A DNA stretch of 32,000 nt. Source: an uncultured Clostridium sp. (GTDB lineage: Bacteria; Bacillota; Clostridia; TANB77; CAG-508). The translations under genes were made by a program, and so were the position numbers. Positions 4,654 through 29,282 of this stretch are shown here, in pieces; positions within the stretch are counted from its first letter, which is position 1, and each line of letters begins with the position of its first letter. The notes under the pieces are model-generated. The model was not told where the DNA came from, searched no databases, and saw only the letters and a list, made by a program, of their open reading frames with translations. The stretch is from contig USNR01000001.1 in the NCBI GenBank assembly GCA_900556135.1, positions 16,485-48,484 on the forward strand. The letters run 5' to 3'.

Positions 4654-6105
4654 TTACATAAATAGCGCTGGTCTAAATCCATGATATGATTGTGCTTGAT
4701 CTGGTCCACCTAAACGATATCCCGCTGGGCTTCCCTCTCCGCTATGTCTTCCAACATACGCTCCTCCTCTTCTAGTACATATAAGACTTGTACTAGATGT
4801 TTTTTCCGTTGTCCATTCCCATACATTTCCTCCCATATCATATATATTACAAACCGGTGTAGTTTGTCCCGTTGGTATTAAAACAGATTCACTTGCAGCC
4901 TTCGTTTTGCTTGCCCCTTTTATATCTTTATATGAAGTTAATCCTAAATCATTATAGTTCCCCTCTTTTGAATCCGAACCATAATTAGTCGCTTTAGTTT
5001 GAATAAAAGCTATTGCTGTATCCCAAGCATAACTACTACATAATTTTGTTTTAGCTTTATAGCCTTGTTTAGTTGCCATTCCCTCTGCTAAGGTTTGTGA
5101 TTGCGTCTTAGTTACCCAATTATATGGAACCTGACTCTTCTTCACAGTTACTGTATTACTTACAGTTGCTCCACTCACTCTCATAGTTTGTGATGCAGTA
5201 CTTTCTTTGTCTCCTGCTTCATATCTTCCTATATAATATCCTTTATATGATTCTACGCTTGCTTTCTCATCCGAAGGCATAGATTCTACATAATAGTATG
5301 TAGTATCAGCACTATTAATCTTTTCCGACTTAGTTGTTGTGTCTATTGTACCTGTAGATGTATTAATTGAATATGCAGCTCTCTTATAATCTGCTATACT
5401 TTCTACTGGTATCCACACAAACTGATTTCCGTCTTTATCTTCTATTACTATTCCGCCTGATACTTCTGTTGCTGAATCATATGCTATTTTAAATCCACTT
5501 GGAATTACTACTCTATCTTCTCCTATTAATATTGGTGTATTTACAGTTTTGCTTACCATAATATCTTTTTGTGCCTCATTTAATGAAATTGAATATGTTT
5601 TGGAGCTTATTATTGCTGTAGATTTATGGTTTTCTACATCTGTTGCTTCTACTGTAATTTCATATATTGTTGCTTCTTCTAGCCCTGTAAATGTATATGT
5701 TGTTGCTCTACTGTTTGTGCTATCTGTTTGCCAATCTCCATCTCCAATTTTGTATCTTATTACTGCAATTCCGCTTTTTGTTTCTGTAACATCAGCCTTT
5801 ACAGTAATGCTATATTTGGTTCTATCTGTAACTTTAACACTATTTATTTTTGGTGCATCTGTGTCAGCTACAACTTTTACTCCGTCTTCTGTGTATTCAT
5901 CGTCTTGTTTTAATTCATCTAATTTTGCTTGTCCTTCTTCTTGTGCTAAGGTTTGGTTTTGCTCTGTTTCTCTCATAATAGTTATCAAACCATTTTTCCC
6001 CACAGTAGTATTAAGTGTTATTCCTGCTAAAATCATTATAACCACAATAGTAATTACAAGCGCTACCAAAGTTATTCCTTTAGAATCTTTCACAATTTTT
6101 TTCAT
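4654..6105 (-). CDS. Pilin-like N-terminal helix + Fn3-like domain + FGE-sulfatase (SUMF1/C-type-lectin-like) domain surface protein
   Basis: The N-terminus MKKIVKDSKGITLVALVITIVVIMILAGITL is prepilin-like (G|ITLVA). An Fn3-like segment follows (DAPKINSVKVTDRTKYSITVKA...YEITVEATD). The C-terminal part has FGE-domain motifs: FVWIP, GYYIGRYEAG, NIYDMGGNVWEWT, RRGG and GFRPAL. Confidence 0.8.
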   Translation of the reverse strand: MKKIVKDSKGITLVALVITIVVIMILAGITLNTTVGKNGLITIMRETEQNQTLAQEEGQAKLDELKQDDEYTEDGVKVVADTDAPKINSVKVTDRTKYSITVKADVTETKSGIAVIRYKIGDGDWQTDSTNSRATTYTFTGLEEATIYEITVEATDVENHKSTAIISSKTYSISLNEAQKDIMVSKTVNTPILIGEDRVVIPSGFKIAYDSATEVSGGIVIEDKDGNQFVWIPVESIADYKRAAYSINTSTGTIDTTTKSEKINSADTTYYYVESMPSDEKASVESYKGYYIGRYEAGDKESTASQTMRVSGATVSNTVTVKKSQVPYNWVTKTQSQTLAEGMATKQGYKAKTKLCSSYAWDTAIAFIQTKATNYGSDSKEGNYNDLGLTSYKDIKGASKTKAASESVLIPTGQTTPVCNIYDMGGNVWEWTTEKTSSTSLICTRRGGAYVGRHSGEGSPAGYRLGGPDQAQSYHGFRPALFM

Positions 6106-6154: not shown

Positions 6155-7138
6155 CTATTCAAAGATGCTTCCCGCTTCTATGCTATTTCCTCTTAAAAAT
6201 TCTTTTATATCCATCTTTCTAGAATTTTCTCCTTGTATTTCCGTCACCGAAATTATACCATTGTTTGCTTTAATATACAACCCCTGTTTTGGATTTGAAA
6301 ACAAAACAGTACCTGGTTCTAATTTTACAACATTGCCTTTATATTCTTCTAGTTCCTTATTTTCTTCTATCAGCTTGTCCAAAGAAAGTACTTCTACCTT
6401 CCAAAACTTTATTTTCTTATCCTTTAAATGCGAATATGCACCCATTATAGGATTTAGCCCCCTTACAAGATTCTTTATTTCTTCTGCTGACTTATTTTGC
6501 CAGTCTATTTTTGCCATTTCTTTAGAAAGCATAGGTGCCATTGTAAATTCTTCTGGTTGTTTTGTTCTTGTTACTGTTCCTGCCTCTATTTCTTTTAAAG
6601 TTTTTACTAATAATTCCCCACCTATTTTACTTAGTCTTTGCCATAATTCTCCTGTAGTTTCATTTTCTCCAATTTTCACCTCTTGCTTAAGAATCATGTC
6701 ACCAGTATCCATGCCTTCATCCATATACATTGTTGTAATTCCTGTTTTTTTATCGCCATTTAGAACAGCCCATTGTATTGGAGCAGCCCCTCTATATTGT
6801 GGTAAAAGAGAGCCATGAACATTTATACATCCTAATTTAGGTATCTCTAATATTTCTTTAGGTAAAATTTTTCCATATGCAACAACACATATAACATCTG
6901 GATTTAACTTTCTAATCTCATCAATAAATTCTGTGTTATTTCTTACTTTTATAGGCTGAAATATTTTTAAGCCTTGCATTTCAGCATATTCTTTAACCGG
7001 AGATGGAATAAGTTTCATTCCTCTTCCTTTAGGTTTATCTGGATTGGTAACAACCCCGATTATGTTATATTTTGCTTCTACCAAACTTTTTAATGATTCC
7101 ATTGCAAAATCTGGCGTCCCCATAAATAATATGTTCAT
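6155..7138 (-). CDS. fmt: Methionyl-tRNA formyltransferase
   Basis: MNILFMGTPDFA..., HGSLLPQYRGAAPIQWAVLNGDKKTGITTM, in the def-fmt gene order. Confidence 0.95.
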   Translation of the reverse strand: MNILFMGTPDFAMESLKSLVEAKYNIIGVVTNPDKPKGRGMKLIPSPVKEYAEMQGLKIFQPIKVRNNTEFIDEIRKLNPDVICVVAYGKILPKEILEIPKLGCINVHGSLLPQYRGAAPIQWAVLNGDKKTGITTMYMDEGMDTGDMILKQEVKIGENETTGELWQRLSKIGGELLVKTLKEIEAGTVTRTKQPEEFTMAPMLSKEMAKIDWQNKSAEEIKNLVRGLNPIMGAYSHLKDKKIKFWKVEVLSLDKLIEENKELEEYKGNVVKLEPGTVLFSNPKQGLYIKANNGIISVTEIQGENSRKMDIKEFLRGNSIEAGSIFE

Positions 7139-11395: not shown

Positions 11396-12691
11396 CTATT
11401 CTTCTATAATCTCTTTTACATCACTTATGCTATTTTTGTAATTTTTCTTTTCTTTAGCATCAATCACAGTAGCTTTTATTATGTAATATAGATCTATTAA
11501 CATTATTACAAAATTTATAAGTATCATAAATTTTTCTCTATGCAATATATACACATAGATTGCTACTAATGTTATCACTGATACTCCAAAAAATTCCACT
11601 CCTATTAGTGCTAATTTTCCACTATCTTTATTGTATGCATTTTCAAATATCATTATAGTAACAGCTATCAAAGATAAACTAAATACTCTTAAATCCACTA
11701 AAAACGATTCTGGCGCAATATTTAAACATCCTAAATTTAAGAATATAAAATATATTGTTATTAAAATTGCTAATAGCACATTTATTCCTATTTCTTTGTA
11801 TATTTTTTGTTTTACCTCTTTAGGTAATTTCTTTTTATTTTCTATTTTTTTAGCAATTTCTTCTGGATTATATTTTTCTTCTTTTTTTCTTTTTGCATTT
11901 TGATTTTTGGTATTATTATCTATTTTTAGTTTTCCTGTTGTCTCATCTTCTTTAATCTCTACTACTTTTTTGCTTCTTTTTTCTTCAACTTTTTCTATGT
12001 TAGCTAATTGCTCTGCTATTATTTTCTTTATCTTCTCATCATTCTTTTTGGCTTGTTTTGTTGCATTTCTTGGTTTTTTCGTAGTTTTAGCTGTTGCTGT
12101 ACTCTTTTTTGCAGTTGTCTTCTTGGCCTGAGTGCCTTTAGCATCTGCCTTTTTTGAATTTGCTTTTTTTGTTATCTCTTCTTTATTTTCATCATTCGTT
12201 TTTCTTTTTTTGCTATCTGACTTCGTAATCTTTTCTAGACTCTCATCAATATCACTCATTTTCTTTGCCCTTGGCTTCGTACCACTACTGTTTTTTGCTT
12301 TACTTGTGCTACTTTTCTTTATTTCTTTTTCAACTTTATTTTCCGTATCTTTTTCTAATTTTTCGCCTTTTTTAGTTGTTACCTTTGATGTTTTTTTAGT
12401 TGTGGTTGCAACTTCTTTTTTTGTCTTTTTCGCTGTATCAGAATCTTTCTTTTTATCTACTGATTTTTCCTTAACTCCAGATTCAACTGTTGTTTTTTTA
12501 ATGCCACTCGTTGTCTTTTTTCTTGTTGAAGTTTTTTTAGTATCTTCAACAACTTTCGCACTTTCAGCTTTCACTTTTTTTGTGTCTGTTTTCTTTTTAG
12601 TAGTAGTAGTTTTGCTTGTTGTAGTTTTTTTATTACTATTTTCCAATGGTTCTATTGTTTCTTCATTTATTACTTTTTTTCTTCCAGCCAT
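11396..12691 (-). CDS. Lys/Thr/Glu-rich low-complexity protein with C-terminal 4-TM membrane anchor (unknown function)
   Basis: 431-aa ORF. The first ~300 aa are KKTT/KKxK low complexity. The last ~130 aa contain four hydrophobic helices (INVLLAILITIYFIFLNLG..., VFSLSLIAVTIMIF, LALIGVEFFGVSVITLVAIYVYIL, FMILINFVIMLIDLYYII). Confidence 0.6.
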   Translation of the reverse strand: MAGRKKVINEETIEPLENSNKKTTTSKTTTTKKKTDTKKVKAESAKVVEDTKKTSTRKKTTSGIKKTTVESGVKEKSVDKKKDSDTAKKTKKEVATTTKKTSKVTTKKGEKLEKDTENKVEKEIKKSSTSKAKNSSGTKPRAKKMSDIDESLEKITKSDSKKRKTNDENKEEITKKANSKKADAKGTQAKKTTAKKSTATAKTTKKPRNATKQAKKNDEKIKKIIAEQLANIEKVEEKRSKKVVEIKEDETTGKLKIDNNTKNQNAKRKKEEKYNPEEIAKKIENKKKLPKEVKQKIYKEIGINVLLAILITIYFIFLNLGCLNIAPESFLVDLRVFSLSLIAVTIMIFENAYNKDSGKLALIGVEFFGVSVITLVAIYVYILHREKFMILINFVIMLIDLYYIIKATVIDAKEKKNYKNSISDVKEIIEE

Positions 12692-16414: not shown

Positions 16415-16780
16415 CTAAATATATAAAATAGCTCTAAAACCAACATCTTCAGAGGTATCAGTAGGGTAAACCACATAGCTTCTATTTTCCTCAACATAAT
16501 TACCAGAACTTTTTATTTTGCCAAACTCAGAGTTATCAATTCCCAAAATTTTATCTATGTCACTATCAGCTGTTTCTAATTGCTCTTGCTCATTTGCACT
16601 AGCATTTGAATACTTATCTCTACTCTCGCCTGATTTTTTTATAATTCCATTATTATCTAATACCAATGTAATGCTTATTCCTGCTAATATTAATAACACA
16701 ACAATCGTTACCACAAGTGCCACTAATGTGATGCCCGAGTGTCTTCTTTCCTTTTTTAAAATTTTACATTTGTTTTTCAT
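16415..16780 (-). CDS. Small (121 aa) pilin-like N-terminal helix protein
   Basis: MKNKCKILKKERRHSGITLVALVVTIVVLLILAGISITL is paralogous to the N-termini of the 4654-6105 and 28105-28956 proteins. The ATG at 16780 has a GGAG RBS. The track start at 16858 lies inside the conserved non-coding leader. Confidence 0.75.
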   Translation of the reverse strand: MKNKCKILKKERRHSGITLVALVVTIVVLLILAGISITLVLDNNGIIKKSGESRDKYSNASANEQEQLETADSDIDKILGIDNSEFGKIKSSGNYVEENRSYVVYPTDTSEDVGFRAILYI

Positions 16781-16826: not shown

Positions 16827-16970
16827 CTAGCGCATTTGCTAATAAATATGAGACACAATTAGGGATTGAAATTTTCTCTTAACTATGAACCCACGTCTTT
16901 AACGTAGGACGATAAGGGAAATTTCTTTTCCTAATTTGGAACATATTATTAGTCAAAATGAGCGGTTGTC
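16827..16970 (-). repeat. Long-hairpin element, copy C2 (core 16860-16933), part of the 5' leader of the small pilin-like gene
   Basis: The minus strand reads GACAACCGCTCATTTTGACTAATAATATG...TAGGAAAAGAAATTTCC...TAAAGACGTGGG...TCATAGTTAAGAGAAAATTTCAATCCCTAATTG...CATATTTATTAG..ATGCGCTAG. It is homologous to 29046-29189 (same strand) and to 17400-17546 (opposite strand). Confidence 0.8.
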
Positions 16971-17060
16971 CTTCGCATTATTTTCTAATTTAATGCTCTA
17001 GTTTCAATGTTTACAAGCATTTCAAAATTTGGTATTAAGTATATTTTTGTTCATACTGAA

Positions 17061-17399: not shown

Positions 17400-17546
17400 G
17401 ACATCCGCTCATTTTGCATAATAAAATGATGTAAATCAGGGAACCCAGAAATTTTCCTTCTGCAACTATGATAAAGACAAATGCTCATAGTTAAGAGAAA
17501 ATTTCAATCCCTAATTGTACATCATTTTTATTATGCCATGCGCTAG
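17400..17546 (+). repeat. Long-hairpin element, copy C3 (core 17437-17513), orphan copy in inverted orientation relative to C2
   Basis: GACATCCGCTCATTTTGCATAATAAAATGATGTAAATCAGGGAACCCAGAAATTTTCCTTCTGCAACTATGATAAAGACAAATGCTCATAGTTAAGAGAAAATTTCAATCCCTAATTGTACATCATTTTTATTATGCCATGCGCTAG. The outer stem GCATAATAAAATGATGTA / TACATCATTTTTATTATGC is nearly perfect. Confidence 0.8.
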
Positions 17547-28104: not shown

Positions 28105-28956
28105 CTATTTTTTGTAATTAATGTTCATAGTAGTATTTGTATAATAAGTACTATTCCACTCTTCATTCCAACCGTCTGGTTTCTTCCCTGCCATAAACGG
28201 TACATTTATAGTAATGTCTACTGAACTACCAAATGCATAAGCTCCTACTGTAACTACCTTATCTGGTATCGTTATCAATGTCAGACTACTTCCACTAAAA
28301 GCATAAGAGCCTATTTTCTCTAATTCATCTGGTATATCTATATTAGTTAAGCTAGTATTTTCATAGAAAGCTGAGCTTCCTATAGTTTTTAATGTACTGC
28401 TAAGATATACGTTTTTTACAGCCCTACATCCAGCAAAAGAATAGTCTCCAACTTCTTCTATACCGTCTGAAATAGTTATTTTTGTAACAGTTTTATTACC
28501 ACTGAACCAACTTGCGCTTCCTCCTATGTGAACTGTTTCTCCATTATGTGGCAATATATTTTTACCTTCTATTCTTTTTACTGCTACTCCATTTATATAA
28601 TTTGGAATAACAATTTCTGTTTCGGTACCTTTATATTGCGTTATTACTAACTCCCCATTATCTTCTGTTTCACAGGCCCAATCACTTGGATTTTCAGGCT
28701 CCACAACCTCTATTGTTTTTCCGTGACTCTCTATCCAATCATTTGCTTCTTTCATACCATTTTGTTCATTTACTTTTGCTTGTCCATATTTTTCTCTACT
28801 CTCTTCAGCTTTTGCTACTATTCCATTATTTTGTAAAATTAAATTAATACTCACCCCTGCCAATATCATTAAAATAACTATTGTAACCACAAGAGCCACT
28901 AAAGTTATACCTTTTTCCTTCCTTACTTTCTTAAAAATTTTGCATTTGTATTCCAT
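28105..28956 (-). CDS. Pilin-like N-terminal helix + BspA-type leucine-rich-repeat surface protein
   Basis: The N-terminus is MEYKCKIFKKVRKEKGITLVALVVTIVILMILAGVSINL. The C-terminal part has repeats of the LRR_5/BspA type (I.IPNYINGVAVKRIEG, ITISDGIEEVGDYSFAGC, VYLSSTLKTIGSSAFYEN, IDIPDELEKIGSYAFSGS, ITIPDKVVTVGAYAFG). Confidence 0.8.
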   Translation of the reverse strand: MEYKCKIFKKVRKEKGITLVALVVTIVILMILAGVSINLILQNNGIVAKAEESREKYGQAKVNEQNGMKEANDWIESHGKTIEVVEPENPSDWACETEDNGELVITQYKGTETEIVIPNYINGVAVKRIEGKNILPHNGETVHIGGSASWFSGNKTVTKITISDGIEEVGDYSFAGCRAVKNVYLSSTLKTIGSSAFYENTSLTNIDIPDELEKIGSYAFSGSSLTLITIPDKVVTVGAYAFGSSVDITINVPFMAGKKPDGWNEEWNSTYYTNTTMNINYKK

Positions 28957-29045: not shown

Positions 29046-29189
29046 CTAGCGCATTGACTAATAAATATGAGACACAATTAGGGATTGAAATTTTCTCTTA
29101 ACTATGAGCTCACGTCTTTATCATTAGTTGCAGAAGGTAAATTTCTTTTCCTAATTTGGATCATTTTATTAGCCAAAAGAGCGGATGTC
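29046..29189 (-). repeat. Long-hairpin element, copy C4 (core 29079-29153), part of the 5' leader of the LRR pilin-like gene
   Basis: The minus strand reads GACATCCGCTCTTTTGGCTAATAAAATGATCCAAATTAGGAAAAGAAATTTACCTTCTGCAACTAATGATAAAGACGTGAGCTCATAGTTAAGAGAAAATTTCAATCCCTAATTGTGTCTCATATTTATTAGTCAATGCGCTAG. It aligns along its whole length with 17400-17546. Confidence 0.8.
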
Positions 29190-29282
29190 CTTCGCATTAT
29201 TTCATCACTAAATGTTCAAGTTCTAACGTTTCCAAGCATTCTTTTATTTGGTATTAAGTATATAACTTAAGGATTTATTGAA

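Follow-up and report, generated by a model that had tools for sequence, protein, structure and literature searches.

A putative modular type IV pilin-type adhesin with a C-type-lectin module, from a family that includes targets of diversity-generating retroelements

Background

What is the role of a gene that lies among housekeeping genes and joins a pilin-like N-terminal helix to a large ligand-binding module? This question is raised by a 32,000-nucleotide stretch of DNA from an uncultured Clostridium sp. of the human gut (assembly GCA_900556135.1, contig USNR01000001.1, positions 16,485 to 48,484), referred to here at its full length as the window. An initial annotation, made from the sequence alone, proposed that the gene at 4654-6105 (the target) encodes a modular pilin or an adhesin anchored by a pilin helix. 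Our analysis favours, with moderate confidence, a modular type IV pilin-type adhesin that would be cleaved, be displayed on a pilus through its leader and helix, and present a lectin module. From the N- to the C-terminus, the protein consists of a leader, a pilin helix, a helical stalk, a fibronectin type III (Fn3) domain and a C-type-lectin module (Table 1). We hold these domain assignments, and the descent of the helix from a pilin, to be far safer than display on a pilus, which we place slightly short of an even prospect, or simple membrane anchoring, which appears doubtful.

Results

Pilins of related pilus operons carry the same helix

The decisive evidence that the helix is of the pilin type is genomic: pilins encoded in type IV pilus operons of related uncultured gut Clostridia (the clade) carry the same helix, with Ala at position +5 after the Gly that ends the leader. 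At locus L015, homologues of PilB, PilT and PilC are encoded 3.4 kb upstream of two genes of the family. This locus was extended (L181/L182) and set beside its homologue in a gut species that is very common (L183/L184), the PilB of which occurs on 791 contigs. In both, a complete pilus cluster (L181 4268-14120; L183 4791-14125) directly follows rsmB and comprises, in this order, pilM/N-like genes, two further open reading frames (ORFs), one or two pilins, a protein with an A24_N_bact domain, two minor-pilin-like genes, pilB, pilT and pilC; the T2SSE, T2SSF and A24_N_bact domains were confirmed. The operon pilins (L181 7244-7669, L181 7690-8148 and L183 7717-8127) are 136-152 residues long, and their N-terminus is MKNQKG followed by ITLIALVITIIVLLILAGV. 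The L183 pilin scores above the Pfam N_methyl cut-off (22.2 versus 21.2 bits). Since these pilins have the same leader and helix as the target, the target helix is of the pilin type.

Processing of such a protein calls for a prepilin peptidase, and one is encoded in the clade. At L033, only 0.8 kb separates a helix-lectin gene from a gene for Peptidase_A24, and in 31 of 80 relatives such a peptidase gene follows a sleB-like gene. The order xseA-xseB-DUF212-fhs-sleB of the relatives matches the left end of the window and the strain contig L090; because this synteny is conserved, the peptidase gene is expected to lie just beyond the window's left end. Besides the window, the readable sequence of the species comprised 10 kb beyond its right end and a set of short contigs. 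In the clade, the features of the prepilin peptidase seem to be divided between two genes: a 271-amino-acid membrane protein of the operon (L181 8227-9042) has A24_N_bact only, while a 249-amino-acid protein near sleB (L033 12213-12962) has Peptidase_A24 only. Thus, the proposal of a modular pilin or a pilin-helix-anchored adhesin is supported by the operon-pilin helix, by matches to solved pilins (see below) and by the Peptidase_A24 genes of the clade; the protein may be cleaved and polymerized.

A regular-expression search for canonical GFTLxE pilins in about 2.4 Mb of related loci returned none; as these loci were not chosen for pilus operons, this is weak evidence.

The helix recurs in the window and across the family

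As the initial annotation had noted, three proteins of the window have the helix G-ITLVALV(V/I)TIV(V/I)(L/I)(L/M)ILAG in common. They are the target and two paralogues (16415-16780 and 28105-28956), and the minus strand encodes all of them. The likeness extends to the DNA (repeat family D3, 74% over 61 nt), and therefore the sharing of the helix is not due to chance. Ile at +1 and Ala at +5 in the target had also been read correctly. A second motif ascribed to all three proteins, NG(I/L)I..(A/S).ES(R/K).KY, is present in the two paralogues only; the target has NGLITIMRETEQNQ. The first 76 residues of paralogue 3 and paralogue 2 are 59% identical. Paralogue 2 likely starts at the ATG at 16780; a longer ORF starting with TTG overlaps a conserved upstream element described below.

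Two features of type IV pilins are present in the target: a short hydrophilic leader, MKKIVKDSKG, with Gly at -1, and a hydrophobic helix of about 21 residues past this Gly, ITLVALVITIVVIMILAGITL, with helices predicted by AlphaFold2 (AF2) at residues 12-33 and 37-67. In an alignment of 43 helix sequences of the family, Gly, Ile and Thr are invariant, and the residues before the Gly vary; the stalk motif G.NG(I/L)(I/L)..A is kept across the family. At +5, the 60 helix-bearing representatives of the lectin-module family at 50% identity have Ala (43), Ser (9), Thr (7) or Glu (1). No Glu was seen at this position among the helix-bearing ORFs that were inspected by eye.

Taken by itself, the sequence of the helix gives evidence of pilin identity that is suggestive but marginal. 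The profile searches proposed with the initial annotation did return N_methyl (PF07963) and FGE-sulfatase (PF03781), both below threshold: the three window proteins all score under the N_methyl cut-off of 21.2 bits (Table 1), and TIGR02532 has no match at E<=1 in any of them. Across the family, 41 of the 43 helices match N_methyl at E<=1 (best E 1.5e-5). When the 43-sequence profile was compared with the PDB, type IV pilins made up the entire top five of the matches (MshA, PilA, PilE1 and two entries for geopilin; E 0.005-0.06), and the Gly of the profile coincides with the cleavage Gly of the solved pilins wherever the deposited chain keeps its leader. Alignment with E. coli pilins and pseudopilins by hhalign gave E 1.5e-4, again Gly on Gly. 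One family member is labelled 'type II secretion system protein' by NCBI.

Nearly the same 20-residue helix recurs across many species and in front of unrelated passenger domains. It is also widespread in ORFs of about 75 amino acids that hold a leader, the pilin helix and a short amphipathic tail (P0219 at L094 10001-10228, P0234, P0199 and P0206). P0219 is found on 92 contigs, and no pilus genes were seen in its surroundings. At L094-L096, a PDDEXK_2 (Rpn-like nuclease) gene is followed by the helix-only ORF and then by a 241-amino-acid ORF that has no Pfam match; a PDDEXK_2 gene likewise lies nearby at L003.

The C-terminal module has the fold of retroelement-diversified proteins

The initial annotation had described a large C-terminal ligand-binding module of the FGE-sulfatase type and an Fn3 domain. 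The Pfam matches to both lie just under their cut-offs, and structure prediction supports both. For the lectin module (residues 185-483), a diverse alignment from an exhaustive search of 1.84 billion representatives yielded the proposed structure prediction, a C-type-lectin fold of high confidence (Table 1). The ligand-binding module was thus rightly recognized; what had been missed is that its fold is the C-type-lectin type of the variable proteins of diversity-generating retroelements (DGRs). Modelling of the full length with 58 close homologues gave a mean predicted local distance difference test score (pLDDT) of 51 and an unusable lectin domain, and predicted, besides the two helices, a beta-sandwich at 77-169. 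In other family members, the slot of the Fn3 domain is empty or filled by a different domain.

The best match of the module in the PDB, found with Foldseek, is TaqVP (5vf4), a DGR variable protein of Thermus aquaticus (E 3.9e-5), followed by CarF, EgtB, OvoA and the formylglycine-generating enzyme (FGE). The profile of the module also matches SUMF2 (E 0.0026), and in a viral library the module resembles FGE-like domains of phage tail fibres. The lectin-module family is large, with 3,285 representative clusters (50% identity) at E<=0.001. Some members are giant proteins with 10-17 tandem copies of the 300-residue module (P0256, 6477 amino acids; P0257, 3424; P0258, 5309).

These matches raise the alternative that the target is itself a formylglycine-generating enzyme or a related enzyme of the sulfoxide-synthase type, in line with the Pfam match and the structural likeness to FGE, EgtB and OvoA. 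However, the Pfam match stays below threshold (22.2 bits, cut-off 23.3) and spans 55 residues only, and the closest structure, TaqVP, belongs to a non-enzymatic DGR variable protein. The catalytic Cys pair of FGE sits in the C-terminal part of the fold, and the target has no Cys past residue 446; therefore, the target is not a catalytic FGE. Moreover, family members are hypervariable in the region of the would-be active site, and the module is predicted to lie outside the cytoplasm. An enzymatic role is accordingly very improbable.

The family contains genuine targets of diversity-generating retroelements

Like DGR targets, the target combines a C-type-lectin/FGE-sulfatase fold with a hypervariable C-terminal region, at residues 435-475. 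Among 54 close homologues, the mean column entropy in this region was 1.57 bits, versus about 0.5 in the remainder of the module. The hypervariable positions interleave with scaffold positions that are invariant (R446, G447, G448, A461, G462, R464, A471, F477 and R478) or nearly so (P460 and G476).

The family holds genuine DGR targets, helix-bearing ones among them. In the template/variable pair of L059, all 21 of 21 mismatches fall at template adenines; in that of L019 (Clostridium sp. CAG:245), 18 of 21 do. The targets at both loci begin with the same pilin-type helix, and it is these adenine-specific mismatches that identify them as DGR targets. A reverse transcriptase (RT) gene lies near the homologue at both loci, together with a MutS_I-like gene at L059. 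In these helix-bearing homologues, a neighbouring DGR rewrites the hypervariable last 45 or so residues by adenine-specific mutagenesis. At L003, the gene of the abundant homologue P0038 is followed by a MutS-domain-I-like ORF, bAvd and an RT (RVT_1).

Two further candidates for a template were set aside. The repeat at L003 is an imperfect partner of the adjacent variable region (one-codon length difference, mismatches at positions other than adenine) and was not used as evidence, and the apparent template at L021 is a paralogous coding segment. A query with Avd matched nothing anywhere, its own locus included, and was uninformative. The MutS-domain-I-like ORF (PF01624, E 5.7e-8) stands between the DGR target and bAvd or RT at three loci (L003 11424-11930, L059 11835-12305 and L077 11443-12213); to our knowledge, such a gene is not a usual DGR accessory.

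The target copy itself is probably not being diversified now. No template repeat for its variable region was found by a repeat search of the window or by blastn-short with the variable regions of three strains in about 70 kb of the species. The window holds no RT or MutS_I-like gene, and neither RT nor template repeat was found in the 10 kb past its right end or in the other contigs of the species. The 3' end of a DGR variable region is G+C-rich (the site of initiation of mutagenic homing) and followed by a hairpin. The templates and variable regions of L019 and L059 share G+C-rich ends, whereas the 3' end of the target (GGATTTAGACCAGCG) is AT-rich, as are the 130 nt that follow it, and neither a GC-rich hairpin nor a stem resembling a terminator is present. 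P0121, the nearest strain variant, is two amino acids apart from the target in the variable region and differs more in the N-terminal region. Mutagenesis of AAC codons cannot yield Gln or Glu, and both are found at variable positions of the target. Its Gln and Glu, together with the two-residue difference from P0121, make current diversification improbable.

Could the target still be an active remote target, with 4681-4803 rewritten in trans by a DGR elsewhere in the genome? Its close homologues look like active DGR targets. In the allele at L088, the variable region cannot be aligned with that of the target while the remainder of the module is about 90% identical, and G+C is raised in the last 150 nt of the target (4654-4803; 42.7%, a value reached only there in the gene), as though copied from a template. 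This explanation is improbable in view of the roughly 70 kb of the species without a template, the window without an RT, the AT-rich 3' end unlike those of L019 and L059, the missing hairpin, the near-static variable region relative to P0121, and the Gln and Glu at variable positions.

Strains appear to differ by replacement at the fmt/asp23 site

How, then, does the target locus vary? At the site between fmt and asp23, three strains carry three alleles (window 4654-6105, L088 4945-6414 and L089 4814-6367). Their N-terminal 232 amino acids are nearly identical, and the flanks are 96-97% identical between strains. The L088 allele is about 90% identical to codon 432 or so, after which blastn finds no alignment until just past the stop codon; the L089 allele has a different lectin module from about codon 232 onward. 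Diversity at this locus appears to arise when either the variable region or the entire lectin module is replaced from one strain to another. The L088 allele seems to be frameshifted near its end. L088 also has a Fic-domain gene (308-985) between a cytidylate-kinase-like gene and priA; the window has no Fic gene.

Table 1. Location of the target gene, its parts and its paralogues in the window
Feature	Coordinates	Strand	Basis
Whole target gene; putative modular pilin-type adhesin, 483 aa, ATG start	4654..6105	-	ORF call
Leader MKKIVKDSKG, short, basic, ending in an invariant Gly; putative prepilin-peptidase cleavage after Gly10	6076..6105	-	alignment; cleavage inferred
Hydrophobic pilin alpha1-N-like helix ITLVALVITIVVIMILAGITLNT, Ile+1, Ala+5, 23 residues	6007..6075	-	AF2 helix 12-33; N_methyl 15.8 bits
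Amphipathic helical stalk, aa 37-67, continuing the pilin helix	5905..5997	-	AF2 helix 37-67, low to moderate confidence
Spacer with an Fn3-like beta-sandwich, aa 77-169	5599..5877	-	Pfam fn3 23.9 bits, cut-off 25; AF2 strands pLDDT ~77
C-type-lectin/FGE-sulfatase-fold module, aa 185-483	4657..5553	-	AF2 pLDDT 96.7, predicted template modelling score (pTM) 0.94
Variable-region equivalent, aa 435-475, hypervariable loops of the lectin module	4681..4803	-	column entropy
Paralogue 2; 121 aa, same leader and helix, short tail	16415..16780	-	N_methyl 18.3 bits
Paralogue 3; 283 aa, BspA-type leucine-rich repeats behind the same leader and helix	28105..28956	-	LRR_5 E 2.5e-25; N_methyl 20.0 bits

The target is a stable fixture among housekeeping genes

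As the initial annotation stated, the target starts 49 nt past the stop codon of fmt (6155..7138); the next gene after it is asp23. No terminator-like site or stem flanks the target on either side, and it is therefore probably co-transcribed with priA-def-fmt. A protein identical to the target (P0001) is found on public contigs with the same neighbours, and more than 6,484 homologues of the protein were found.

A jump in G+C relative to fmt, taken as a hint of foreign origin, did not survive measurement: G+C is 34.6% in the target, 32.5% in fmt, 34.5% in asp23 and 28.9% in the window. On composition, an origin from foreign DNA was rejected. Nor is the gene a one-off insertion between fmt and asp23, as several strains keep it there as a stable fixture. 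Matches in the viral library BFVD prompted us to consider an origin from a prophage or tail fibre, which was rejected since the neighbours are housekeeping genes conserved across strains.

The gene rsmB, which had been expected after fmt, is missing from the window; in relatives, the pilus operon directly follows rsmB. It is a speculative possibility that scattered conserved pilin 5' segments mediated a rearrangement of the rsmB region. Elsewhere in the window, the minus strand encodes a 431-amino-acid protein (11396-12691) with a low-complexity N-terminal part of about 300 residues rich in Lys, Thr and Glu and a multi-pass membrane C-terminus; no Pfam match is on record for it.

A non-coding element lies upstream of the two paralogues

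A non-coding element of about 150-220 nt lies directly 5' of paralogues 2 and 3 on the minus strand, in sense orientation (16827-17044 and 29046-29263). These two copies are 76% identical, and the target has no such element upstream. Antisense copies are present at 2447-2535, in the nusB/xseA spacer, and at 17400-17546, 429 nt further upstream of the gene at 16415, where the copy forms an inverted repeat of about 145 nt. Two tandem copies lie at the end of strain contig L090 (5350-5597), which stops inside the element. Its fold is a long hairpin (z -3.56), which none of 200 shuffles equalled in stability. All copies that were found come from this species. A scan of the whole window at the Rfam gathering threshold gave zero matches, for the element as for the rest, and the element does not correspond to a known riboswitch. 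It might serve as a leader RNA or a promoter module, or represent a small mobile element.

Discussion

Display on a pilus or anchoring in the membrane

We propose the following course for the target as a modular pilin-type adhesin. The protein would be inserted with its N-terminus in the cytoplasm, and the A24 prepilin peptidase of the clade would cut after Gly10. The PilB/PilC machinery would then lift the protein from the membrane into the pilus, where the bulky C-terminal part could be accommodated only at the tip or as sparse protrusions. There, the lectin site would face a ligand of host, dietary or microbial origin. Each genome would hold several paralogues (the window has three), in which a common pilin handle bears a variety of binding modules. 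The target would then probably be one of many interchangeable adhesins on or beside pili.

Several findings weigh against this reading. Apart from the retroelement results given above (no template, RT or MutS_I-like gene within reach, an AT-rich 3' end, and Gln and Glu at variable positions), the first concerns Glu at +5 (Glu5), a type IV pilin feature replaced by Ala in the target. Glu5 is near-invariant in bacterial pilins, dispensable for cleavage and needed for homopolymer assembly, and subunits that lack it can co-assemble (PMC4471445). The N_methyl score of the target (15.8 bits) is under the cut-off, and the full-length AF2 model, which is of low confidence (mean pLDDT 51), has no head between the helix and the Fn3 domain. 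The target also lies outside any pilus operon: as the initial annotation had found, the window has no pilB-, pilC-, pilD- or pilT-like ORF (phmmer with E. coli HofB, HofC, GspE, GspF and GspO against all window ORFs). The peptidase and the ATPase are taken from relatives with only about 66% XseA identity.

The main alternative is a membrane-anchored adhesin, in which the helix descends from a pilin and serves as an N-terminal signal-anchor, cleaved or not, the stalk and Fn3 domain cross the wall, and the protein is never polymerized. In its favour, Ala replaces Glu5, and Glu5 mutants do not homopolymerize (PMC4471445); the AF2 model lacks a pilin head; the genes are scattered among housekeeping genes, outside pilus operons; and the long helical stalk with the Fn3 domain resembles a wall-spanning spacer. 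However, an invariant Gly at -1 and a near-identical 20-residue helix over many species and passengers exceed what an anchor needs, and the operon pilins of the clade share the Ala5 helix. Since these operon pilins also have Ala5, a missing Glu5 does not tell an anchor from a pilin in this clade, and we regard mere anchoring as unlikely.

For the pilus-displayed adhesin, the loss of Glu5 can be viewed in two ways. Natural subunits that lack Glu5 (GspK-type, Streptococcus sanguinis PilA) cap the filament tip (PMC9934059), and by analogy a bulky modular subunit without Glu5 would fit this picture if placed at the tip. Alternatively, because the operon pilins are also without Glu5, the rule of assembly itself may differ in the clade.

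Significance

A wider claim is put forward tentatively, and we hold it to be somewhat less than probable: in an abundant uncultured clade of Clostridia from human and animal guts, all pilins that make up the type IV pili, operon-encoded major pilins included, would lack Glu5 (Ala5), and each genome would carry several pilins that combine a handle with a module (lectin, leucine-rich-repeat or other), the lectin modules being hypermutated by DGRs. If true, it would mean a retroelement-driven, combinatorial repertoire of adhesins on type IV pili, as well as a natural exception to the Glu5 requirement for bacterial pilus assembly. Modular pilins explain many functions of simple type IV pili, and the few that have been studied all have the canonical Glu5; a clade with Ala5 operon pilins would be a natural test of what Glu5 does. 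DGRs are densest in the gut, where the known pilus targets are Bacteroides type V pili. Helix-bearing lectin proteins of Firmicutes that are clear DGR targets suggest that DGRs diversify adhesins of type IV pili. With over 6,000 close homologues, in addition to the clusters counted above, the family is also large, and it is almost wholly unnamed in public data, so that a function assigned to it would annotate thousands of gut-microbiome proteins. The target itself is an ordinary member of an undescribed family, probably one that does not diversify, and it is the family and the clade that merit interest.

Comparison with known systems

A close parallel in architecture is offered by PilB and PilC, modular pilins that S. 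sanguinis, a monoderm Firmicute, produces; in them, as in the target, a class III signal peptide and a pilin N-terminus are followed by grafted adhesive modules (PMC8179133, PMC9934059). The module of PilB is a vWA domain, those of PilC are an immunoglobulin-like fold and a concanavalin A-like lectin, and both proteins have been proposed to sit at the pilus tip (PMC8179133, PMC9934059). The genes for PilB and PilC belong to the pil operon, and the proteins keep Glu5, as is canonical, together with a short pilin head. The target, in contrast, has Ala5 and no recognizable head, carries a C-type-lectin module of the DGR type, and is encoded among housekeeping genes as one of several paralogues.

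The target also shares the absence of Glu5 with tip pilins such as the 'K' subunit (GspK/PilK-type) and S. sanguinis PilA. In those systems, only a single subunit is without Glu5, which the major pilin has retained, whereas here operon proteins of major-pilin size have Ala5 as well. A missing Glu5 is therefore characteristic of the clade and does not mark the tip.

C-type-lectin-fold variable proteins of DGRs include Mtd of a Bordetella phage and TvpA of Treponema. With TaqVP (PDB 5vf4), the target shares the fold, the C-terminal variable region and the invariant scaffold, and its homologues have the RT, Avd and template repeat. Unlike DGR variable proteins, the target is directed by a pilin helix at its N-terminus, rather than by a lipoprotein signal or a phage tail-fibre trunk; it has no cassette within reach, and its variable region is nearly static.

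A limited literature search found no description of an Ala5 pilin clade or of DGR-diversified type IV pilins. A survey lists a 'G-type pilin' domain among rare domains that bear a variable region, with no further study (PMC11661182). Related in concept is the work on gut Bacteroides, which has no mention of type IV pili, Firmicutes or Clostridia (bioRxiv 10.1101/2024.11.15.621889). The type V pilus adhesins described there belong to another pilus system, that of Bacteroidota, and the proteins are unrelated to the target, but the concept is shared: DGRs diversify the adhesive components of pili.

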